Source: Microbotryum violaceum
Taxonomy: Eukaryota
Direction of reading: 5' to 3'
Assembly: GCA_001244265.2 (NCBI GenBank)
Contig: CDLV01000015.1
Coordinates: forward strand, 682,001 to 746,000
DNA: 64,000 nucleotides
Each line of letters opens with the position of its first letter. Position 1 is the first letter of the stretch. The position numbers were made by a program, and so were the translations under genes. Positions 8,207 through 64,000 of this stretch are shown in pieces. The notes under the pieces were generated by a model, which saw only the letters and a program-made list of their open reading frames with translations, was not told the origin of the DNA and did not search any database.

Positions 8207-11200
8207 ATGGCTCAGAAGCGGATGGAGGCCGCGCTAGGCTCCATCTTTTTACCTCGTGACTCGGTGTACGCGCACCTCGATGACGATCTCGACGAGGAGG
8301 ACGGCGTCGGTGCACCCTTCTCACCGAGTCAGCAGCATCAGCTGCATCACCACCCCCTATCGCCGCCAGTCCACGCACCCATACACGACCAGGTGGAAGC
8401 CAACCCATCACTCGAAACGGATGATCCGTTTGCTTCACCGTCTCAGCTCCACCAGCCTCTCCAGCACGATAGCAGCACCAGCAGCAACAGCGTTCGGCCG
8501 TTCGATCGTTCACCGCGCCGAGCCGCCGACGCGCCGACCGCCGCCATGGTCGCTGATCCGACTCTGGGACCGACCACGACCACCACGTCGGCCCTGATGG
8601 AATCGAGAACATCCCCATTCTTATCGGATCAGATCCCCTCCCCGACTGAAGCTCTTTCATCACCACAGCAGCCGCAGTCTTCCGCCCCGCCCAGCTTGGA
8701 GCCACCCCCACTTACTTCTCCTACCGCCACGCCGAGTCGGTCCAGTCATGCGACGACCAGTGCCAGATCGCACGAGAGAACGCTTTCGGGTCACCACCTA
8801 TCTGGATCCATGTCGACTCACAACTCGCCCAGCCTAATGCACCTCTTGTCGGGCCAACGGATCCCCGAAGCCTCACCTCGTCATCTCAGCTCGCCAGGCT
8901 CGACACAGCGGCCACAGCATCGCTACGGGACGGAGCACAGTCGGGACTTGCGGGAAACCATCGCAAATGGGGATGTATTGTCGCTGTGAGTTGGTGAATG
9001 CGCACCGGAGTCCACTGATAGCAGGACCCGGCAAGCTCACTCGGGCTCCCCACCAATCAGGAGCGAATCGAGAGCACTGGCCGCGTCATTGCCACCACCA
9101 CCTTCAGCGCTTTCACCACCTTCGTCTCACATGTCCGATCAAGACGACATCGAAGATGAAGACGAAGATGACGACGAGGCCCCACCGGATTTCACCACCC
9201 GAGTGCCCCTCATGTCGTCGCAAAAGAAGCGAATCTCGTCTTCGGCAAAGTCAACGGCTTCGTCCTGGGTCCCAAGTCATGACGTACGACTCGGTGGTCG
9301 TCGGTCGGGACCTAGAAGAGGTATATTGGGCACTGCGTCGACGGCTTCCGCTGCATCCGAGGGAGGTTCGTCCCGGAGAGGAGGAGGCAGGCGGATGGCG
9401 GCGAAAGAACGGGCGTTGTGGAGGTGGATCAACGTCGAGGACCTAGATGGGTTTCTGCAGCAGGTTTACATCTACTACGTTGGCAAAGGCATCGTTGCGA
9501 TTGGTCTGAGTCGGTTGTTGAACTTGCTGTGAGTGGGTGCGCGAGTGGAGTGATTCCCCGCGGCAAGTCTGCGGGCTGACAGGAAAGGTTCTTCGGTGGG
9601 GCAGGACGGTCGGATGGGTCATCGCCTTCTCGACGTTCCTCATGGGGTGCATCGACTATTCTATACTGTGGAACTCGCATCATCTCTCGGAGGTGGTTGT
9701 GTCAAAGTGTATCTCGAGGTAAGAGCGTCTCACATGATCCTCCTCACGGTTTTCTCGCAGGCTGACGGGGAAATCACTTGCCGTAGATTCTCTGGTCTTA
9801 CATTCCTCATCGCCGTCTCCTTCACTGCATTTTATTGTTGGCGCATCGTGCGATTCGGGATGGGTGTAGGCAAGTTGTGGGAGATGCATGAATTCTTCAC
9901 GGAACTGCTCGAAATACCCGAGGTCAGCACAACGGTCTAGACATCCGCAGCTCGGGGAAGTGTTGCTCACACGACCGAAACTCATGTTTTTGGGGCAGAA
10001 TGATATCCAAGCGATCCCCTGGCACGCCATTGTTACCCGCTTGTCGGCGCTTCGGGCGACTCATCCCGCTGCTCTCTCATCTCGGTCTAATTCGGCCACT
10101 GAAAGTCAGGGCGGCGCGCCGTCCCGGCTCGATGCTCACGACGTCGCGAACCGCATAATGCGAGAGGAGAACTACCTCATCGCATTGTTCAACAAGGGTG
10201 TGCTCGACCTCTCTATCCCTCTGCCTTCTCTTCTCGATCGACTTTTGGCGGGTCGGTCTCCAAAATGGGGGGCATCGATGCTGACGCAGACGCTAGAATG
10301 GAACCTTAGCTTTTGCCTCGTCGGCTTCTTATTTGGGAGGGATGGACAAGTCAGGAGGGCGTTCTTGATGGAAAAGAATAAGAAGGAGCTGGTGGAGGCG
10401 CTGCGGAGACGTTTTATCCTCATGGGGTTGATCAATGCCGTCTTTGCGCCGTTCATTGTGATCTACTTGCTCATGTATTCGTTCTTCCGGTACTTTGAGG
10501 TGGGTCGGTGCTCTTAATGCTTTGCACACGATTCGTTGCTTACATCGACGATTCTCACTTGCGTAGGAGTACCACAAGAATCCGTCTTCGATTGGTTCTC
10601 GACAGTTTACTCCACTAGCGCGGTGGAAGTTCCGCGAGTTCAACGAGCTACCTCACCTCTTCAGCCAACGCCTCGCCCAAGCCCACCCTCTCGCCGATTC
10701 TTACATCAATCAATACCCTAAAGCGCGTACGGCATTGATCTCACGCTTTGTCGCCTTCCTCGCCGGTTCCTTTGCGGCCGTCTTGATCCTCTTTTCCTTA
10801 ATCGACCCCGACGCGTTCCTCCATTTCGAGATCACGCCCGGACGGACGGTTTTATTCTACATCGGTGTCTTTGGAACGATCCTCGCCGTCGCTCGAGGAA
10901 TGGTGCCGGACGATCACAAGATCGTCGACCCCGCCGAAACGATGCGTGAACTGGTCCAACACACGCATTACCTCCCCAACGAATGGAAGGACAACCTCCA
11001 TTCTTCCGGCGTTCACGCCGAATTCGGCAGCTTGTTCCAGATGAAGATCGTCTTATTCGTCAAGGAGATCCTCTCGGTCATTGTCACACCCTTTGTGCTG
11101 TGGTATACCCTTCCTCGATGTGCGGGACCGATTGTGGATTTCTTCAGGGAGTTTACGATTCATGTCGATGGGTTGGGATATGTGTGCTCATTCGCGGTGT

Positions 11201-14700: not shown

Positions 14701-16871
14701 ATGGCCACAAATGATGAGGAGCGTACACGGAGTGCAGTGACCCAATCCGGTACTGCTGAATCGAACGGTGCCGCACCCTCAAGCCTCTCCACGTCACCGA
14801 CACAGACCCCGATCGCGCCAGCCTTGTGCTCTTCCTCAGCAGACAGCTCGATTCCACGTCCCCAGCTCGACTTGCACCCCGTGTTCCACCCACCCTTGTG
14901 GCTCGCGAGAAGGACAGCATGCATCAGGGCCCTCAAGAGGGAAGGTGTTCGTTCCGTGAGTCATCCTCCTGCCTTCTCTTCTGCACACGAGCTCGTACAG
15001 CGCCCGCGAAATAGAGCACAAACGGTGGTCACGAGGCGCGCGCCTCGGCCAATTTTGACTTCAAACACCGTGCCTGTACCACCCCGCATTCTCTTTTTCC
15101 TCTTCGCTTGCATATTTATCCTGCAGCTTTCATTATGCGTTTTCACCCCACCTCACCCCACCCCATCTTCTCACCCCATCCCCATCCCTCTAATCCATCA
15201 CTCTTCCTCGCTGACTTCAACAACAAAGACCACGGCTGGGGAAGCATACCATGTAATCGACACTGACATGACAAATCTCGATCTTGTTTCCACCGCCAGG
15301 TCGTCGACATCGGTTGCGGCGAGGGAGCCGTCCTGCAGATGCTCATCTCCCCGGCCTACCACCTCGATTCGTTTCCCGATCTCTACGCTCCCGATCCCGT
15401 TTCGCATTCGTTGTCATCCGAGTCCCGTTTCTCAAGTTCCCGCGAGGCTAAGCTCGAACAGTTACGCAGGGTACCCCGCTTGAACCCAGAGGAAGAGGAA
15501 CTGCACTTGCGTCGGGTCATCGGCGTCGATATTCTCAGGTCGAGTTTGCAGCAGGCTGCTCGCGTCACCGATCCGGAGGCTGGGGGCGCCTCGCCCCATG
15601 CTTCGAGGTGGGAGGAGTGTAGGGTCGAACTTTACGAAGGTGGTCTCGAATCATACAACCAAGTCTTCGAAGGTGTAGAGGCTATGATAGCGACCGAGGT
15701 CCGTGCATATGCGCGATGTCAAATGGAGCAAGGAGTTCAACGCTGACCCTTCTTATTGATCGTCATCAAGGTCATCGAGCATTTACCACCGCACCTGTTT
15801 GACAAGTTTGCCAAGACAATCTTGGGAATGTATCAACCCCGACTAGTCGTCGTGACCACCCCGAATCATGAGTTCAACCCCTACTTCATTGCGACCAGCA
15901 AATCCGACGAGGACTCAAACCGCTTTCCCGACCCGACGGGCCGTACGAACCGAGTCTTTCGCGATGACGATCACCAGTTGGAATTTACGATCGACGAGTT
16001 CCAATCCTGGGCCAAAAAATTTGCTGCCGAGAACGACTACCGAGTCACCTTCACTGGTGTGGGCTCGTTGTCGCATTACTACGGCAGTCACGCACCGCCG
16101 TACACTGGTATCCCTTTCCCTCCTCCTTCGCTTGACGCTCATCCAGCTTGTCGCAAATTTGCCTCTTCAAAATCTCTTCCTTCGGACCCTTCGACATTCT
16201 TTGCGACTCAAATTGCCATCTTCACTCGCATCTTTCCCAACGAGGTCGAACGTTCGCCGCGATCCCACAAGCCGCAGCCATTGCCCTTCTTCTCCCCGAC
16301 GACCGAGTCGATCGTCGAAATGGCACCGGTGGCTGCGATTGTACCCTCTGGTGTAGCATTATCTTCATCAAGCACGACCCGTCCAGGTCTCACTGCCCGT
16401 CGACCAACCTTGACCACGCCTCACATACACGTCCAAACGCACACCCACCGACCCCACCCCAGCGCTTCTGAACCTCTTGGTTCCGAGAAGCTCATCAAAT
16501 CCCTCAAAAAACGCTTCGACGAACGCCAATCGTCCCGCCTGAGCTTGGCGCAAATCTGGTCTAACGACGAGATGAGGATCGATTGCGGTGGGATCGTGGG
16601 GAGCTTGATTGATGCGCTTTTGGAGAAGGATGAGGAGGGGGAATGGGAATTAGAAGCTTTGGTGGAGGAGGAAGGGGTGAGGGGTATGGAGGCGCTGATG
16701 GTTGAGTGGAAGGGGTTTGTAGAGAGGAAAGAAGAGGGGGAATCGGTGTGGGATCGCGCGTATATTGAGGAGATGGAGGTCGAAGATGGGCATGAGCAAG
16801 GGTTCGACGAGGATGATGGTTTGGAGGATAGTAGTGATGAGGAGGGACCTGACCTTGAGTGGGAGCAGTGA
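14701..16871 (+). CDS. HEN1: Small RNA 3'-terminal 2'-O-methyltransferase HEN1
   Basis: FHPPLWLARR (FxPP motif), VVDIGCGEG (SAM-binding motif I, after intron ~14956-15299), EVIEHL, TTPNHEFNPYF, FRDDDHQLEFTIDEFQSWA, QIAIF, and an acidic C-terminal tail. Confidence 0.92.
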
Positions 16872-46975: not shown

Positions 46976-48276
46976 TCAGGTCTTTCGGGAGCCCTTACAG
47001 CAGCGGTACCAGGTCTTCCATTGTAATTATAGCCCGATCGAGTACTTTCCTGGAACTTTTTCAATGCTGTGAGGCTAAGCCTGAGGCTGAGGAGCGAGCT
47101 GCGCGGCTGCGGCCGCTCGACGGCAAAGTCGCGCTAGCACTGCGCAAAACCAATGAGAGGCGTCGGGCGAGGCGAATGGTAACCTAGCGCGTCTGGTCAG
47201 CCTCGTGGAAGCACAAAGAAAACTTCGAATACGTTCAAAAAAAGGTGAGTCGAAGTTGCAAATGGTTTAGCAGCCCAAAAGCGCAGGCTACCAACGTGGT
47301 CAGACTCCAGTGAACATGAACGAACTCGGAGAAAAGATCACTAGCTGCAAATGGGGCGAGAGGCAGCCCAAGACTGAGTTTCAGGCACAGTCAGACAAAG
47401 AAGAAAGTAGGCAAATGTCCGCTTTGTCACCGGTATCATCAGCATCGGACAATCCTGTGCGTCATCTCGTACAAGGCACGCGCGCCAGGGAGTCGCGACG
47501 ATGATGCGCACATGAACCAGTTGGCGCGACCAGCTTGGTCGGTGGCGAGATCACCGGGGGTCACCTACATTGTCTCGTACTTGATGACGCCTTCGTGGTG
47601 CTTTTTGAGGTGCTTTATGCCTTGAATGGCACCCGCAATGCCAAGTCCGATCGCCGCGCCGGCGGGACCACCGACGGCAGTGCCGGCAATGATGCCTGCG
47701 CCACTGCTTCTTGCCTTCTGCAGCGGGCAAGATTGTCAAAATGGGACTCGACAGCGGCAAGTATGAGAGTCGTCCTAGTCATGGATCAGGCCGTAAAAAG
47801 TACGTCAGAACCCAGGCCCAGCGTTGGGTCAGATTGCTTGTTCGGTCGTTCAGCGAATTGGTTATTGGACACAGGAACGCAAAGCAAAATAGGGACGAAG
47901 AGTGGGAATCGCACGGGGTGGAAGATCGCAATGTTGCGGTATGCTCAAACTTACCGGGTTCGCTCTTATGGTTCACGGAGGAGTCTACGGGTTTACTGAC
48001 CTATCTTGGGAACCCATCACACCCGCAGGCTGTTGTTCTCACCTGTGGGTTCTCGCCGAGTCAGCTCGTGCTCAGCGAAGCTTTTGTCAACTTTTGGGCC
48101 AGGCATGAAGCGAAGAACATGAAGCCCGACACGCCTCAACTTTCAGCCTTGAGCGATCATGCCGCACAAATGTTTGGTGAGTCAATTTTCTGGCTTTACC
48201 TCTGGCATGTTCAACGCCCCGCCGCTGACTGGTCGATAAACTACCGCTTGCGCGCCACTCCCAGGCCTGTTCTTTT

Positions 48277-48342
48277 TGTTGCAACAAGGACTAAGAGGTA
48301 CTCCACGACTCAGCTCCGAGATACACGAGTGAGATGATGAGA
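48277..48342 (-). repeat. Truncated 3' LTR of the copia element (terminal 66 bp only)
   Basis: Exact match to 52800-52865, fused directly to RNase H coding sequence; no PPT or U3. Confidence 0.93.
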
Positions 48343-52795
<4,453 letters not shown>

Positions 52796-52799
52796 AACC

Positions 52800-52989
52800 T
52801 GTTGCAACAAGGACTAAGAGGTACTCCACGACTCAGCTCCGAGATACACGAGTGAGATGATGAGAATAGCGTGGAGAAGGAACCCAGAAGGAAAAAAAGA
52901 CGCAAAGACAAAGATAGGCGCGCGCGCAGAATAAAGTATTAACCAAGACTAATAGCAATGAGTTAGGCTCTCAGACCCCACTTCTAACA
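52800..52989 (-). repeat. 5' LTR of the copia element (190 bp)
   Basis: Minus strand reads TGTTAG...GCAACA. Positions 52800-52865 are identical to 48277-48342. Confidence 0.93.
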
Positions 52990-57360: not shown

Positions 57361-58047
57361 TGTCACGTTCACGGAGCCTGGATATATGCCGTAAGGGAGT
57401 ATTGCACTCGGTTTATGGTAGCATTGATTTGGACTCGTCGAGCAACGAGCACGTCAGACCACTAGCGCCCACAAGACCGGACAATACCAAGAAGAACGGG
57501 ACTGGTCAGATGCTGACGAAGGCCAAGAAGGATCGGGCAGCGTCTGACGTCTGACTCGAGATAACCTCGAGTCGAGTCCGGCCCGCCGATCGAGTCCAAG
57601 TCGAGGAGTCGGACTGGTCGGAGGTGGAAGACTGCTACTATCACAATTAACGCACCGCAAGGCGGCGACGAGTCCCTGAACCTCCAGTGCCCTCTACAAA
57701 GTCACACTCACAACTATGGCCCGAAGATAGGCACTACCACCCACATTTCATTCGATTTCGACTGCATTTCATTTCATTTTCTTCTCTGTCTATCCTTATT
57801 CAGATATTTCTGTTTTCGTTACCGTTGTCTAAACAAAGTCCAGGAACTCTTTCTTTCCTCACCATTCGCTCGAGACCAATCAAGCATGAGCCTTCCCGGT
57901 CCTGCGGTAGGAGCCAGCCGCGCGTTCCGAAGAGACTTCATTCATGATCCTTGTCGGCGGCCTCTTTCGCCTGCGCGTGGACCGGATTCTTGTTGTTGTC
58001 AGTGACTGTTGAACTCCAAATAACCAAAGCCGTCAGCCGGTATAACA
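57361..58047 (+). mobile_element. Possible degenerate solo LTR
   Basis: Starts TGTCACG (same first 7 nt as the 50276 solo LTR) and ends TATAACA; non-coding, with a pyrimidine-rich 3' half. No TSD found. Confidence 0.25.
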
Positions 58048-58050
58048 GGT

Positions 58051-58750
58051 TTAGTGGGGAATTGCAGGCTTGAACTCATCCTCGTGACCATCGGTGCTCC
58101 ACAAGTCAATATTCAGCTTGGCGTCCATTGCCGAACGCTTGAAAGGGAAGGCGATGACTCGCCTAGGACTGCGGACTGTCGGCGGGGGCGTGGTCTGGCG
58201 TGTCATCTGCCGCACATCAGACAGGGAAACTACACCAGGCCCATGCAATATGCACAAAGAGTTTGCCGGAGGACCGGTCCCCCCAAGCGCGACCCTCGAC
58301 GGTGCAGACAACCGCACATAGATCACCTTTACCCAGGGTGCCCACTCCCCAGCGTGGGATATCCATCCTTGTTTATGTCGCCCAGGGTGCTCATCGACAG
58401 TCACGTGGAGTTGCGTGGGAGATCCTTTGGCGTACTTGCGAACGGTTAAAAGCCCCTCCCGGACCTCCGCATAAAATCGACTGTAATCGGGCAGGGTGAG
58501 AATGTTCTCCGGGTCCAAATGGGAACAGGCGGAAACACGCCGGCCTCCAGCACCCCCTGTGACTCCATCTTCCTAATGACTGCACACACCCGTGTCAGCC
58601 CAATCATCAGAGTCTGAGCACACAAAGGCAAACATATACATTACCACTCACATCCTGGGTGTGACCAACTGGTGTTGGATGGAGACCACCTGCGGCTTCG
58701 CCGTTAGTAGGTTGGGCGTGTTGAATGCGATCGCTGGGGCAGGTCTCTGT
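58051..58750 (-). pseudogene. Gene fragment of unknown family
   Basis: 155-aa ORF plus an upstream GT-AG intron (~58581-58650); no recognisable domain or start. Confidence 0.3.
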
Positions 58751-58966
58751 CTTTCTTTGCAACGGATTCAACTTTCAATAACTGTTTCCCAAATTCCATG
58801 CCGTTGCCCCATGTTCAGAAAAAACAGGATCGCAACTTGGACATGCCCTGAGTCGCAACTTTGCCTCGGACTCGGACGTCACGCGTCACGAGCAAGTGCT
58901 CCGACCGCTGCTTTTCCGGAGGCAAGCTTGTGCTCGAGACTGAACACACAAAGCGGGTTGCAACCC

Positions 58967-60172
58967 GGGGATCTTCCTCAGGAGCCAAGGGAGAAGAAGA
59001 AAAACCTAAAGCGCAGAATAATCCGAGGGCATACATCACTATTTAGGGAGCAGAACAAAGGACCCAGACAAAAGATCAACGCCACGAGCCCCACCGCCTT
59101 AACACTCCAACCCTCACCGACCAACCGTATCCTCTTATCGTCGCAAGGGACTGTCCCAATCCGAGCATGCAATACCTCGCAAAGGCTCGTTACAACATGC
59201 GTCTGCGCACACAGTCGTGCGTGCGTTGCTCGCGTCCTCCACTCGATTGTGGCTCCTCGTTGGGCGGTCAACTAATCTGCTTTGGGTGTTTGGCAGCTAT
59301 GGCCTCTGCGACGAGCGACCAAACTGCGACAGATCTGTCGGCCGGCTCAAAGGACGGCCCCCAGGATCAAACCCCAAGCCGCATTTTACGTTCAACTTGA
59401 AGGCCCCTGGCACGCTTAGACAGGTGGAGAATGGCCCGCGACGACTCTTTAGTTGATGTTCTTCAATCGTCTCGCAGTCATCTGGATGATTTGTATTATC
59501 ATAATCACTGCATTTGGAGGCTCCTTATACCTTTACCTTTACCGTGACCTCTACGATTGACCCGGCCCGGAGGCACTCGCGGGGTCGATCGTACAGGTGA
59601 AAGTAAAGGTATGTGGACCCTCCAAATGCAATGATCATGATAATACAAATCATCCAGATGACTGCGAGACGATTGAAGAACATCAACTAAAGAGTCGTCG
59701 CGGGCCATTCTCCACCTGTCTAAGCGTGCCAGGGGCCTTCAAGTTGAACGTAAAATGCGGCTTGGGGTTTGATCCTGGGGGCCGTCCTTTGAGCCGGCCG
59801 ACAGATCTGTCGCAGTTTGGTCGCTCGTCGCAGAGGCCATAGCTGCCAAACACCCAAAGCAGATTAGTTGACCGCCCAACGAGGAGCCACAATCGAGTGG
59901 AGGACGCGAGCAACGCACGCACGACTGTGTGCGCAGACGCATGTTGTAACGAGCCTTTGCGAGGTATTGCATGCTCGGATTGGGACAGTCCCTTGCGACG
60001 ATAAGAGGATACGGTTGGTCGGTGAGGGTTGGAGTGTTAAGGCGGTGGGGCTCGTGGCGTTGATCTTTTGTCTGGGTCCTTTGTTCTGCTCCCTAAATAG
60101 TGATGTATGCCCTCGGCTTATTCTGCGCTTTAGGTTTTTCTTCTTCTCCCTTGGCTCCTGAGGAAGATCCCC
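58967..60172. repeat. Long inverted repeat (hairpin 1): ~600-bp arms and a ~18-nt loop
   Basis: Mirror ORFs 58978-59271(-)/59868-60161(+) and 59167-59400(+)/59739-59972(-). The outer ~535 bp are reverse-complement identical apart from one mismatch seen at 59021/60118; the inner ~60 bp pair imperfectly. Confidence 0.97.
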
Positions 60173-61157
60173 TCAAAAGCCGTGGCTAGGAGGTGAGCTC
60201 GGCTTATTCGGAGCTCTCGCGGGTCCTTTGTTCTGCTCCCTGAATAGTGATGTCTGCCCTCGGCTTATTCTGCCTCGAGTCAATCTGGACAGTGGATTCG
60301 ACCGAGGCGCTCGTCCGATCGGTGCTTGGAGTGGTCAGAGGTCTGTTACGATCTCGCTCTCATCAGTCTCAGCTGATCTCAATCAGGGTGGAGCGATATC
60401 TGATGCCGGATTGGTCTCCTTCCAGGTCTGCGTAGTCTATACCGAATGCGGATCCTACACTGTGATGTCTCACCCGGCAATATTATGATCGGACCCGGTG
60501 GTGAGGGTGTACTGACCGATAATGACGTCGCCGTATTCATGGACGGCCCTTCTGGTGAAGCTGCACGCCTGAAACGACGTGTGAGGTCTCTTTCTGCTTG
60601 CGCGGCGCTTCAGTGCTGCTTCACCGACCAGAGCCTCGTTCAATCACTCCCCACAGGGCACGTTCGCCTTCCGACCCCGGCATCTCATCCAATATGCCGG
60701 CGAAATCTTGCACCAACCTTGGCACGACATTGAGCAGCTTGTCTACACCCTCTTCTGTGTTGTTCTCGCTCGACCCAAAGGGCCAGGTGATTCGACCGGA
60801 ATGTCGGACAAAGCCGCTTCGGTTTGGGAGGAGTGGACAACGGAAGCTAAGGCCCGTCGGGCACACCTTTCGAAAGAAACGCTTGTTCAAGTGGAATCGA
60901 ATCGGAATAAGTTGTTGGACTCAAGTTTGGATTTCTGGGAAGGCATTCCTGATCTCATCGCCACGGTGGCGAAGTACTGCGGACTAGGCTTGTCGGTCTG
61001 CATTTACACCGAGGTCGCAGAAGAAGAATGCCTCGAGAACGGATGGGCTTCAGGTGAACTCTCGCACGACCACCTTATTGCGGACCTGGAGGAGTTATTG
61101 GAGAAGATCGCGCAGAAGAAACAGGAATGGGTTCCGGGTTCGCCTGACATTATGTAG
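59582..61157 (+). pseudogene. Fungal-type protein kinase (FunK1/Pkinase_fungal-like), middle and C-terminal part, degenerate
   Basis: LGFDP and RGATIEW lie in the hairpin arm. These are followed by spliced STEALVRSVLGVVR/GLRSLYRMRILHCDVSPGNIMI..GVLTDND../GTFAF..HQPWHDIEQLVYTL (introns ~60341-60425 and 60581-60656). The 5' part has stops and frameshifts. Confidence 0.8.
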
Positions 61158-61842
61158 ATACTTTGAATCTGTGTGCCGTTCATTTGACCAGTTGTAAACT
61201 TTTTCATCTCGTTCCGACCGTAAATATTACGAAAGTAAGGCCGAGATGGAAATGGATAAAATCCGATGTTAGATTCGACTGATCCTGGAGATTTGATTTT
61301 GTGTGATATGGTCCCATGTTACGACTCTGTGCGATCCTTGTTCTGAGATTGGTCGGCGCGTGTGTGGGTGCGTTGTCATATCTGGGCCGAGATGGACCCT
61401 AATCGCAACCCAGCCTGTGTAGGAGATACAAGCGTTTTATGCTCCTGAGCTTTGATTCAAATTAGAATTGTGCCGCACATATGGCATAATGTTATATTTT
61501 GGACTTACCACATCTTCTCAACCTTGAAAAATCGCCCTTTTGTTTTGGAGCGCGAGATCTCGTCACGTCCAAATCAATGTGCGCAGTCGTTCCAGGATCT
61601 CTTCATTGACCAGCTCGGAACGTATTCCCGTCAGGTTTTCAAGAGCTTCTGATCATTCTCATTCAAAGCAAGCTGGAAAAAGGTTAGCTCTGGAGTTTCT
61701 CAGAGATCTTTGATACGAAGCGGAACCCCTCGGCTAGCGGAGACTTGAAGTCGAAACACAGGGACAAGGCGATATATCACCTGTTCATTTTATCACAGTT
61801 ATTTCGACAGGCGAGATCGGAATGTAATATTTAAGCCTTGCC

Positions 61843-62460
61843 TCACCTGTTGCGCACATCACCTTGAGCCCGGTCGATGCGTCGGGTCGAGCCGAGCCGA
61901 GCCGAGGGAAGGCCAAAACTGTGCACCCGGAGCCTGCGGCCGAGTGACCCTACCCGCTCCCCTTGACTTGGGACGGGCCCCTCCATTTCGCCCTCTGCTG
62001 TTGTTCTCCTTCGGATTTGGCGTTCTGGTGAAGCGAACTCGCTTGTTGTGAGCTTTGAAGCCGGGTTGGCCTCGAGGAAGGCAGCCAGCTCCTTGCGATA
62101 CTGCGCGCGCAGATTCTCGAAGTTGTTACCCACTCGGAGCCAGCCGAGCGCCTTGTACGACCCTGAGCAGAGACGAGGTAGCGGACCGACCGTTTCGAGT
62201 TCCTCGAGACTCTTGAAAGCAGGCGTATACAGCGAGTTGTGATGCTTCTTCTTCACTTTGTCGAGCAGCAACTTTCGACAGTCGACGGAGTCGTGGGACC
62301 AAGACGATCGGATGAGACGCCGAGCCACGAGCTTTTTCCCTTCGTCGACGTCGCGAACGTACGAGAGCCTATCGTTGAACTCGGGATTTTGGGTCGGAGG
62401 ACGAAAGCGTGACGGGGCTTGGGGGTGTGGGCTTTTCGCGATTTTGGCCCATCTGAAGCC
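61843..62460 (-). other. Open frame of ~200 codons, unknown product (possible gene fragment)
   Basis: Protein-like open frame extending upstream of the listed 161-aa ORF; no motif recognised. Confidence 0.3.
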
Positions 62461-62861
62461 TAAATTTGTCCAGTCGGGCGCTACGCGCGTCAGGCTGGGC
62501 TTTCGGGGGTCCTCGGCCGACTCGACCGACAGTTGTGTCGCACGACTACCTCGACTCGCGCCCGACTAACCGTTCGTGAGCGGTTGATGGTAGCTCATCT
62601 TTCACGCCCTTGCCGCCAACTACACGTCTCGGTGAACCACGTACACCCTGTCATTCGTGAATTTCTACGGTACACTTGCCAGTACATTCTGTGCTCCAGT
62701 CTGCGCTGCCGCCTTTTTGTCCTCATTGCCCACACACGTCATATCCCACGCCCGGACTCGGAGGCATCTCGCAGCTGTTTTCCCTCCTCGCTGTCCGCTA
62801 CAAGCGCAATCTGTCGCGGTCTGGTCTTTCACGCAGGCACCAGAGCTATCAGTGAGTGTGA

Positions 62862-63570
62862 ATGAGACATTCCTTTTATTCGAAACCCGCTACACCATTA
62901 AGGACTCTGACGGAGCTTTTGAGAGTAGTGAAGCCCAACGATGCTCCTGTCAAGTACTCAAGGAGCATTGCTCCTGTCAAGTACTCAAGGAGCATTGTTC
63001 CCGGCCACGACACCAACCGCAAGAAATCATCCACGACAGACTTAGGTAGGAGCTGGGCGTTCGTATTGAGTTCTCTCGAAATCTACACACGTTTTGTGGC
63101 AACTCCAAATCCCGACTTAGACAACCTGGCCGAGCATGTCACCTTTTCGGGTACTTGGGGGGAGGAAGAGCCGATGAAAGACCTCTTTGCCCAAATCAAT
63201 GCGGTTGTGAGTCTGCTATGTCGTTGCCCAATACAAGTTACCCAATATATTAATTACAAAAGGGATCTTCTTCTTGCGCACCAGGGTCCGGCTATACGCC
63301 ATATCGTCGCAAGTGGGTTTCTCAACATCGTCGTTCCGACCTCGGCCGGCCAGCAACCTCACGAGGACCACGCACCGGACGCCGTCGTTCTCTTCTCTTC
63401 GCGTCGACCGAGCCAATCGAGAGGATCTGGGCTATGTCAGACGACGAATGGAGGAGGGGGGGGGGGGGGGGTACGGTTAGGCAAACATCCAGAGGATCTC
63501 CGCAGAGTGAACCAGGTTCTCGCTCCTAATCAAGAAGGAAAACAAAGGAGGCTCTGCCGCTTGGCAGAGC
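62862..63570 (+). pseudogene. N-terminal PD-(D/E)xK-like region of a FunK1-type gene, degenerate (left arm of hairpin 2)
   Basis: HAPDAVVLF is present in both arms. The mirror arm reads VNQVFVPGELKKGNKGGSAAWQ (63526-63750, minus), resembling the 'PD...vpGElK...a..Q' pattern found upstream of FunK1 kinase domains. Confidence 0.55.
62942..62997 (+). repeat. 27-bp tandem duplication (x2), in frame (APVKYSRSI x2)
   Basis: tgctcctgtcaagtactcaaggagcat occurs at 62942-62968 and 62969-62995. Confidence 0.95.
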
Positions 63571-64000
63571 AATTGTCGATTTCAGTCGATAAAACCTCCG
63601 CACACTCTGCCAAGCGGCAGAGCCTCCTTTATTTCCCTTCTTGAGTTCTCCAGGGACGAAGACTTGGTTCACCTCGCGGAGATCCTCTGGATGTTTGCCT
63701 AACCGTACCCCCCCCCCCCCCCCCCCCCTCCTCCATTCGTCGTCTGACATAGCCCAGATCCTCTCGATTGGCTCGGTCGACGCGAAGAGAAGAGAACGAC
63801 GGCGTCCGGTGCGTGGTCCTCGTGAGGTTGCTGGCCGGCCGAGGTCGGAACGACGATGTTGAGAAACCCACTTGCGACGATATGGCGTATAGCCGGACCC
63901 TGGTGCGCAAGAAGAAGATCCCTTTTGTAATTAATATATTGGGTAACTTGTATTGGGCAACGACATAGCAGACTCACAACCGCATTGATTTGGGCAAAGA
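63184..64000. repeat. Long inverted repeat (hairpin 2): arms of at least 390 bp and a 35-nt loop; runs off the window end
   Basis: Mirror ORFs 63216-63416(-)/63768-63968(+); base 64000 still pairs with 63184. G16 (63456-63471) faces C21 (63708-63728). A diverged zone is followed by a perfect 26-bp inner stem 63544-63569/63605-63630. Confidence 0.97.

Follow-up and report, generated by a model that had tools for sequence, protein, structure and literature searches.

The Mu killer (Muk) locus of maize is a partial inverted duplication of a gene's front, and its hairpin RNA has been proposed to come from transcription running through the duplication (PMC3440606). In the rust fungus Puccinia striiformis, tail-to-tail gene pairs (pst-sir-9 and pst-sir-110) give rise to ~21-nt RNAs, 14/33 gene-associated small RNA loci are long inverted repeats (modal small RNA length 21 nt), and predicted small RNA targets include FunK1 kinases (PMC4578785). 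The Drosophila hairpin RNAs (hpRNAs) Nmy, Tmy, and hp-tHMG are defined by Dcr-2-dependent siRNAs and by derepressed targets to which siRNAs are fully complementary (PMC10317233). On the protein side, Podospora Spok proteins carry a C-x3-C-x13-C-x5-H-x7-H cluster before the kinase (PMC6660238), and CR-type REase and kinase proteins unite nuclease and kinase (review PMC5289972).

Here, we describe two fold-backs, HP1 and HP2, at the end of a 64,000-nt stretch of Microbotryum violaceum DNA (contig CDLV01000015.1, positions 682,001 to 746,000; hereafter the window). HP2 resembles Muk as a partial inverted duplication of a gene front, but it stems from a nuclease-kinase gene and uses its own 5′ region; moreover, Muk has a near-identical active transposon, MuDR, as its target, with silencing shown, whereas no close target of HP2 was found in its genome. 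With pst-sir-9 and pst-sir-110 it shares the subphylum and the tail-to-tail arrangement of related copies, although those loci are whole gene pairs with measured small RNAs, whereas the HP2 pair is truncated, has a loop of 35 nt, and is known from DNA and contigs. The likeness to Drosophila hpRNAs lies in spliced transcripts with a potential for long duplexes, a fast-evolving and possibly selfish gene family, and frequent admixture of transposon pieces, but no fully complementary target of HP2 was found in its genome. The family's source gene places a PD-(D/E)xK-type nuclease fold ahead of a kinase as in Spok proteins, and joins the two as in CR-type proteins. Its kinase is PF17667-like, the Spok cysteine cluster was not seen by eye in P0001 (an orthologue described below), and killing is putative here.

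Two independent fold-backs

Both loci are long inverted repeats capable of duplex formation, as in hpRNA and Muk-type loci (Table 1). The HP1 arms (577 nt each) are 99% complementary, with a perfect stretch of 480 nt (59023-59502) and mismatches restricted to 59022/60117 and the inner zone. HP2 extends beyond the window end, from 62898 to the equivalent of 64254 (C13:744898-746254), and has a perfect stretch of 341 nt (63131-63471); its predicted fold is stable (-1279 kcal/mol over 1371 nt). After shuffling of 58901-64000 (n = 30), the longest inverted exact match was 11-16 nt.

That both fold-backs are genuine, as the initial annotation assumed, is borne out by short reads. A single contig of run X2 represents the HP1 arm, at depth 414 compared with ~205-250 in the flanks, and other X2 contigs cross both loops (HP1, 59500-59666; HP2, 63474-63700); run X1, from a separate study, has one contig that switches strand at the loop of HP1. 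Long reads are known to create perfect palindromic arms as an artefact, but given these doubled depths and crossed loops, the support for HP1 from two studies, the natural-looking substitutions and indels between arms, and the arm-specific alleles present in reads, the chance that fold-back long reads produced either structure is practically nil, assuming that X1 and X2 are not assembly-derived.

The two do not share one design, as had been proposed. In the HP2 outer zone (62898-63130) the arms are 80-96% alike, with indels, and only the middle is perfect, a divergence previously missed because the window stops inside the right arm. Nor do they represent the halves of a single FunK1 gene: no kinase locus among 18 loci compared by tblastx matched HP1, its supposed kinase-proximal motifs LGFDP (59762) and RGATIEW (59880) occupy different frames, and the kinase C-lobe beside it belongs to a different subfamily from HP2. 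HP1 and HP2 are independent fold-backs within a patch of mobile-element debris. The dispersed repeat upstream of HP1 has three full copies with common ends, and no terminal repeats were seen; the CACTA-like remnant is transcribed and spliced on the - strand toward the kinase piece (CT..AC joints), and one of its C1/C2 copies adjoins a Transposase_21-like ORF (E 5.5e-4, under cut-off).

Table 1. Features in and around the two fold-backs (window coordinates)
Feature	Position	Strand	Remarks
HEN1-like methyltransferase gene	15267-16868	+	TIGR04074 E 9.1e-17 and 3.4e-5, below cut-off; 42 kb distant, context only
Unclassified dispersed repeat, 5′ part of ~2.1 kb	57645-58953	+	Ends 13 nt before HP1; matched dozens of times across many contigs, best copies 87-92% alike
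HP1 left arm	58967-59543	-	Inverted copy of 5′ region of lineage-specific "family X" gene; antisense on +; aligned with C14 and C6 copies
HP1 center	59544-59595		Diverged inner zone and loop; folding adds further pairing with bulges; spanned by X2 contig and X1 strand-changing contig
HP1 right arm	59596-60172	+	Degenerate family X 5′ part, sense on +; 78% nt over 213 nt to C14:77837-78048
Direct copy of 60074-60126	60221-60273	+	53 nt, 96% alike, at junction with kinase piece
FunK1-like kinase C-lobe, subfamily A	60270-61157	+	3′ part; nuclease domain and N-lobe absent; 70-71% nt to C13 paralogues
CACTA-like element, accessory-gene remnant and subterminal repeat	61290-62515	-	76-78% nt to C1/C2 copies
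HP2 gene native 5′ region, first exon, start of first intron	62584-62897	+	Matches upstream part of M. saponariae P0002, P0005
HP2 left arm	62898-63569	+	Sense copy of nuclease part (P0001 residues ~13-205); frameshifted
HP2 loop	63570-63604		35 nt; crossed by X2 contig
HP2 right arm	63605-64000	-	Inverted copy, 254 nt more past window; carries PD...GELKK; frameshifted; no promoter-side copy

Source genes of HP1 and HP2

A Pfam search with the window's own pieces gave no hits (0/5), and family assignment was therefore made by homology. Intact orthologues of the HP2 gene are present in Microbotryum saponariae (P0001/P0003, 655/659 aa), alongside other close gene models (P0002, P0005, and P0006). 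The HP2 right arm, in which the previously noted PD...GELKK motif was confirmed, matches P0001 residues 13-209 in four pieces at 82-94% aa, and 172/196 aligned residues are identical to the intact orthologue. On this homology, HP2 is assigned to the front third of a gene for a FunK1 kinase with a predicted restriction-endonuclease fold (subfamily B2).

The nuclease-kinase nature of the source family, suggested earlier, holds for its paralogues, which combine the restriction-endonuclease fold with PF17667 (27.2, 25.7, 41.8, 39.8, and 62.6 bits in paralogue ORFs, cut-off 24.1 bits); P0001 also carries PF17667. The N-terminal domain was modeled from paralogue L037:3511-4230 (pLDDT 78.7). Its structural matches reach middling Z scores (BpuSI 8.3, with rmsd 3.7 over 140 residues; DrdV 7.7; TT1808 7.6), with restriction-type nucleases or nuclease-fold proteins in 13/15 top rows, and Foldseek returned no match with E under 0.001 for this model. 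PD...GE-x-K is visible in the family alignment, and D...E-x-K is kept in subfamilies B, C, and D. By modeled fold and motif, the domain is a predicted nuclease of the PD-(D/E)xK restriction-endonuclease superfamily. A full-length P0001 model, which had a pLDDT of 40.5 and no Foldseek match below E 0.001, was set aside; no PDB sequence match was found, and L031 gave no Rfam match.

HP1 has a different origin. Comparison by tblastx with 18 fetched loci gave no kinase-locus match and a single match overall, to another hairpin on C14, and tblastx, tblastn, and blastn against kinase loci found no homology to members of the FunK1/PF17667 family. The relatives found are other hairpins or fragments only, with 0 perfect 21-mers to a target gene. 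Searches for a source protein gave 0 hits among 158 candidates, 0 hits for the C14 copy against 1.84 billion protein representatives, no usable Atlas hit, and no Pfam hit. Together these comparisons indicate that HP1 derives from an unrelated lineage-specific gene rather than a kinase. The right arm includes a hydrophobic stretch near 60040-60110; a conserved GTGAG was considered as a splice donor and rejected because the spliced contig reads straight through it.

The right arm does continue into a kinase C-lobe, as the initial annotation proposed. One 1190-nt contig joins the two by splicing (GT..AG joints); it covers the arm from 59840 onward, carries the left-arm letter at 60117, and holds 244 open codons across the splices, with the first Met at 60446. 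The C-lobe is only 31-38% identical in amino acids to P0001, the orthologue of the HP2 gene. HP1, which is head-to-head, would be a duplication of another gene's front end whose RNA most likely begins in or near the right arm and then splices into a stranded kinase C-lobe; a hairpin RNA would form only when upstream transcription reads in.

Transcription, RNAi genes, and targets

Transcription, from which the initial annotation expected long dsRNA, is supported for HP2 from its native 5′ region. In run X6, a spliced + strand contig (62605-63160; first intron 62852-62928, GT..AG joint 62851/62929) enters the left arm from the native 5′ region. Right-arm letters (62926 and 63130) also occur in contigs of this run, at depths of 5.5 and 4.1, the left-arm contig having 5.7; such contigs give no strand for unspliced right-arm pieces, no transcript start, and no level. 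Among the four runs examined splicing is seen in X6 alone, where the right-arm pieces could be carried-along DNA; no GT..AG joint was seen in X1, and X8 yielded nothing. No X6 contig runs from the left arm across the loop into the right arm. Coverage is missing at 59500-59781 and 63166-63700 in X6 and at 63025-63700 in X1, and drops near the HP2 loop in X2 as well; the X6 and X1 gaps were given no evidential weight.

The genome encodes two Argonaute-like (Piwi) loci, a Dicer-like ORF of 1388 codons with two RNase III domains, and the HEN1-like gene already noted in the window (TIGR04074, below the family cut-off). Expression of RNAi genes has been reported for a Microbotryum species (PMC4469406). 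The HP2 fold-back could make silencing RNA.

A target is harder to find. The best other match to HP2 in the genome is 64% identical in nucleotides, with 0 perfect 21-mers and a longest run of 10 nt; a single near-perfect 21-nt window links it to the best paralogues, and the best other protein matches reach 42-43% aa (10 matches; 14/14 candidates scored). Intact paralogues highly identical to the arms, whose lack the initial annotation had declared beforehand to count against its proposal, were not found in this genome. Among the best candidates scored in this one assembly, there appears to be no intact B2 gene left.

Proposed history and alternative readings

We tentatively favor the reading that HP2 is a Mu-killer-like hairpin allele of the B2 nuclease-kinase gene that has lost its target, an orphaned silencer whose siRNA step we infer. 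A B2 gene would have duplicated tail-to-tail and lost its middle and both 3′ ends, leaving two copies of the nuclease part flanking the 35-nt loop; later conversion between the arms would account for the identity of the central 341 nt. Spliced sense RNA still runs from the native 5′ region into the left arm, and the X6 contigs carrying letters of the right arm suggest that RNA may come from that arm too, in which case a ~650 bp duplex can form. Dicer would cut this duplex into siRNAs on Argonaute, and since no intact B2 gene seems to remain, their action would be limited to the locus itself and to any B2 gene arriving by mating or introgression.

Sister fold-backs are consistent with this route. 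The family holds seven short-loop fold-backs (HP2 and six more) and three whole-gene inverted pairs, and all 10/10 are tail-to-tail (P about 0.001, assuming independence). By their appearance, the whole-gene pairs could be precursors of the short-loop fold-backs, and one has homogenized arms like those of HP2 (1581 nt perfect). By analogy, HP2 itself may have arisen from such a pair.

It is somewhat unlikely that the fold-backs are instead inert scars, left in repeat-rich DNA by old errors of repair or replication and yielding residual promoter RNA with no effective duplex or siRNAs. Fold-backs also occur elsewhere, once in the eight 10-kb stretches (1 in 80 kb) that formed the control together with window positions 1-57000, and several stem from transposon genes, including copia and CACTA fragments; family enrichment is weak (rough P of 0.05 with five hairpins, 0.012 with seven). 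The arms are frameshifted and diverged, no target was found in this genome, and DNA-level conversion alone predicts homogenized arms. G-U bias was considered as a mark of selection on RNA structure and set aside: HP2 mismatches show no strand-specific bias (11 versus 16), as scars would predict, and HP1 sites are too few. Yet a DNA fold-back should ignore gene direction, whereas 14/16 classified fold-backs are tail-to-tail (P = 0.002; cases not all independent), the exceptions being HP1 and one C14 hairpin, both head-to-head. HP2 also retains and uses its native promoter side and first intron, both its arms are represented in the spliced run, and comparable loci in a rust fungus yield small RNAs.

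A stronger form nested within the orphaned-silencer reading holds that nuclease-kinases are selfish elements of the Spok or CR kind, that silencing hairpin alleles were favored, and that HP2 outlasted a purged B2; we consider it distinctly improbable. It is consistent with the fold joined to a kinase, the D...E-x-K retained in subfamilies B, C, and D, and the ~58 family match clusters, 34/55 of which are no more than 100 kb from the end of a contig (the clusters are not independent of one another). Several subfamilies have hairpins, and those at C13:853 kb (30-36 perfect 21-mers to other copies) and C6:2046 kb (5 perfect 21-mers, 85-87% identity) still match other copies; the silencing idea suits such family hairpins better than this locus. 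But killing or drive is putative for every member, P0001 has no visible Spok cluster, and the C7:371 kb and C17:484 kb hairpins, like HP2, have no close target. Furthermore, subfamily A has a whole-gene palindrome, yet contigs of its paralogues abound in X6, with the proviso that contig depth cannot rank genes. It is equally doubtful that Microbotryum restrains selfish nuclease-kinases by self-derived hairpin alleles, about one set per subfamily, with tail-to-tail pairs collapsing into promoter-driven hairpins and HP2 outliving a target that persists in M. saponariae.

We give very little credence to the original model, in which the locus now silences intact paralogues in trans. RNAi genes are encoded and the locus is transcribed, and the C-lobe has 39-49 21-nt windows with ≤2 mismatches to subfamily-A genes, which could count if RdRP spread silencing from HP1. 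But the C-lobe lies outside both duplexes, with 0 perfect 21-mers to its 71% paralogues, HP1 matches no kinase, and the closest other copies found for HP2, at 64% identity, share no 21-mer with it, so that by sequence such silencing is unlikely.

FunK1-type kinases are still largely without an assigned function, and fungi have so far offered few examples of endogenous suppressors that act through hairpin RNA. With a defined hairpin that is transcribed, an orthologue still intact in a related species, and sister hairpins closely matching other copies, both siRNA production from such fold-backs and RNAi control of the family, as expected of a selfish one, become testable. If there are no siRNAs or RNAi control, the locus is ordinary palindromic debris. 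If the restraint reading is true, it would be a fungal counterpart of the arms race between hpRNAs and drivers in Drosophila and might contribute to hybrid incompatibility between smut species.

Structure and source of the two fold-backs

The window corresponds to C13:682001-746000 in a fungal assembly of 33 Mb and 20 contigs. HP1 and HP2 (hairpins 1 and 2) are surrounded and separated by a CACTA-like remnant and a truncated dispersed repeat (table). HP2 arms match perfectly for 341 nt mid-arm and at 80–96% with indels outward, diverging again beside a 35-nt loop; inverted matches in 30 shuffles were at most 11–16 nt. Contigs of four public sequencing runs were aligned on 59500-63700. In run X2 a single contig represents the HP1 arm at ~2x flanking depth and both loops are spanned by contigs, while in run X1, from a separate study with different SNPs, a contig switches strand at the HP1 loop. 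Long-read artefacts thus do not explain the fold-backs, and we give virtually no credence to an assembly error.

By homology, HP2 is the first third of a nuclease-kinase gene of subfamily B2. The HP2 right arm aligns in four pieces, at 82–94%, with residues 13-209 of P0001, the intact 655-aa M. saponariae orthologue bearing PF17667 (172/196 residues identical). A near-identical P0003 comes from a second assembly, three more gene models are close, and DNA upstream of the left arm resembles the upstream part of these gene models; no homologous sequence was found beyond the right arm. A predicted nuclease-domain model of the paralogue at C13:940 kb (pLDDT 78.7) matched BpuSI (Z 8.3, rmsd 3.7, 140 residues), and 13 of the top 15 rows were restriction-type nucleases or proteins of nuclease fold, a mitoribosomal protein filling the remaining two; Z values were middling, and Foldseek with the same model gave nothing under E 0.001. 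The PD...E-x-K motif agrees with this fold, which the predicted N-terminal domain of the family matches. Subfamily A has GG-x-K in place of the E-x-K of B, C and D, which probably leaves its nuclease domain inactive. PIF1-like helicase pieces adjoin family members in this genome and sit within another close M. saponariae model, P0002; there is a hint that Helitrons may move family members.

The initial annotation had taken the hairpins for two halves of one FunK1 gene. However, HP1 matched no kinase locus among 18 retrieved stretches, and the kinase C-lobe (70–71% nucleotide identity to C13 copies, 31–38% amino acid identity to P0001) belongs to a different subfamily from HP2. LGFDP and RGATIEW, read there as kinase-proximal motifs of HP1, lie in different reading frames. 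Judged by sequence, HP1 is not kinase-derived; three genome searches with it returned itself and a C14 hairpin, nothing else. Alignment of C14, C6 and C3 copies suggests that it stems from family X, a lineage-specific gene encoding a hydrophobic stretch, whose 5′ part it carries in degenerate form. No database homologue of the source protein was found, and the copies located in the genome, mostly within fold-backs or alternating arrays, are all fragments, with no intact gene among them. Conserved frames place family-X sense on the + strand in the right arm, so HP1 would be head-to-head.

Features of the locus and related sequences (unprefixed, window positions; C, contigs; L, local coordinates of retrieved stretches)
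Feature	Position	Description
Copia-type retrotransposon, - strand	48182-52865	gag, integrase-adjacent, RVT_2 domains; 66-nt direct repeats at 48277 and 52800
Dispersed repeat, unclassified, non-coding, ~2.1 kb	57645-58953 (truncated)	many genome-wide copies; 5′ end constant, without terminal repeats
HP1 arms	58967-59543, 59596-60172	577 nt each, 99% alike, 480 nt perfect
Kinase C-lobe	60270-61157	subfamily A
HP2	62898 to 254 nt past window end	subfamily B2
Poly-G/poly-C tract, both HP2 arms	63456-63471, 63708-63727	16 and 21 nt
Sister hairpin	C13:853.0-855.1 kb	
Sister hairpin	C13:909.8-910.9 kb	
Sister hairpin	C13:928.2-929.6 kb	
Sister hairpin	C6:2046.7-2047.3 kb	
Sister hairpin	C7:371.2-372.5 kb	
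Sister hairpin	C17:484.1-484.9 kb	
Whole-gene inverted pair, tail-to-tail	L041:4718-9980 (C13:1018.7-1024.0 kb)	1581 nt perfect arms, inner zone 71–86%
Whole-gene inverted pair, tail-to-tail	L039:6184-8129	mixed, partly broken
Whole-gene inverted pair, tail-to-tail	L161:4630-9677 (C18:409.6-414.7 kb)	
Non-family fold-backs	L044:4913-5571, 8400-8909 (C17)	
Non-family fold-back	L043:7350-7787 (C14)	
Non-family fold-back	L169:8023-8413 (C9)	
Family X copy	L043:5100-6450 (C14:77.1-78.4 kb)	
Family X copy	L145:2823-3558 (C6)	
Family X copy	L146:4945-5315 (C3)	
Family X copy	L147:4287-4347 (C6)	
Subfamily A members	L005:503-1618, L042:2301-4109	GG-x-K
PIF1-like helicase piece	L038:1443-2057	

Sister fold-backs and their orientation

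Family matches formed about 58 clusters of protein-search matches, 40 of which were retrieved. Self-comparison of these loci revealed seven short-loop family fold-backs including HP2 (five at protein-search clusters, two in adjoining DNA), plus three larger inverted pairs. All ten are tail-to-tail, six hairpins being oriented by protein match and one by DNA. In all six sister hairpins the sense arm leads. Protein matches show this for five of them, and for C13:853 kb it follows from DNA similarity to sequence lying 5′ of subfamily-C ORFs. Non-family fold-backs comprise a CACTA-like accessory gene, two gag-like genes and one unclassified piece, and the three orientable ones are also sense arm first. 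When family X and these three hairpins of transposon genes are counted as well, 14/16 are tail-to-tail (p 0.002), a count of not fully independent cases in which family-X orientation is inferred and unorientable hairpins (C9, C3, small C17) are omitted. The C13:853 kb hairpin shares 30–36 perfect 21-mers with C5 and C4 copies, and that at C6:2046 kb is 85–87% identical to genes at C13:940/970 kb with perfect 21-mers kept; on sequence grounds these two are better silencer candidates than HP2.

Transcription of the locus

Contigs of run X6 carry GT..AG and CT..AC joints, so X6 is RNA, at least in part. One 1190-nt contig covers the HP1 right arm from 59840 onward and is spliced across three introns to the C-lobe. 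Its frame of 244 open codons (first Met 60446) would encode no more than a kinase C-lobe lacking the N-lobe. This contig has the left-arm letter at 60117 (paired with 59022), the sole difference between HP1 outer arms; either the left arm is also transcribed or the right arm was converted in that strain. Another contig (62605-63160) lacks the native intron 62852-62928 and enters the HP2 left arm in sense. Right-arm letters at 62926 and 63130 occur in unspliced, strandless contigs of low depth (4–5, near left-arm contig depth), which fit read-through but could be DNA, in one run of one study. At 61290 a + strand spliced contig of the kinase piece meets a - strand spliced contig of the CACTA-like gene, and their transcripts' 3′ ends may overlap nearby.

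Possible roles of HP2

HP2 may be an orphaned hairpin resembling Mu killer (Muk) of maize, a reading we hold tentatively, at somewhat short of an even chance. The gene has an intact orthologue in M. saponariae and none was found in this genome. Tail-to-tail gene duplication followed by loss of the middle would have created it, a route the whole-gene pairs suggest, and arm-to-arm conversion would have homogenised the arms; the poly-G tract, present in both arms but lacking in the M. saponariae orthologue, points to a single origin and copying between arms. Sense RNA enters HP2 from the native 5′ region; read-through and then dicing would follow. The genome encodes two Piwi loci, a tandem RNase III ORF and, as initially annotated, a HEN1-like gene, and M. 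lychnidis-dioicae is described as expressing RNAi genes (PMC4469406).

Mu killer, as described in PMC3440606, is the architectural match. Puccinia striiformis is reported to yield ~21-nt RNAs from tail-to-tail gene pairs (PMC4578785), and Drosophila hpRNAs are described as derived from their own targets and defined by Dcr-2-dependent siRNAs (PMC10317233). HP2 resembles Muk and hpRNA loci in build and is a candidate member of their kind, but these searches found no close target for it in this genome. No such loci were described in titles and abstract openings of papers, largely outside subscription journals, on Microbotryum small RNA, palindromes or inverted-repeat siRNA, on fungal hairpin RNA from inverted duplication, or on FunK1 with nuclease.

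That the palindromes are inert scars with no silencing effect seems rather unlikely. Two observations argue against a special role: 1/8 control stretches of 10 kb held a fold-back, and enrichment in the family is weak (rough p 0.05 to 0.012). Nested within the orphaned-hairpin reading, and improbable, is the idea that selection favoured HP2 as a suppressor of selfish genes of this family. Spok proteins are described as killing via a PD-(D/E)XK nuclease and conferring resistance via a kinase (PMC6660238); nuclease plus kinase is also a common CR architecture according to a review (PMC5289972).

Silencing of paralogues now present, as initially proposed, is very unlikely. Intact paralogues highly identical to the arms did not emerge from these searches, an outcome that the initial annotation itself had named as refuting its proposal. 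The closest protein match outside the hairpin (14/14 candidates scored) reaches 42–43% over the left arm. The best other DNA match is 64% identical, shares no perfect 21-mer and at most 10 nt in a row, and has a single 21-nt window with <=2 mismatches. The C-lobe, with 0 perfect 21-mers and 39–49 near-perfect windows to paralogues, lies outside both duplexes.

The locus is real and transcribed, and the split-gene reading is wrong. Two things give it value and justify a small-RNA test: a related species retains the orthologue intact, and fold-backs across the family are biased towards tail-to-tail orientation.
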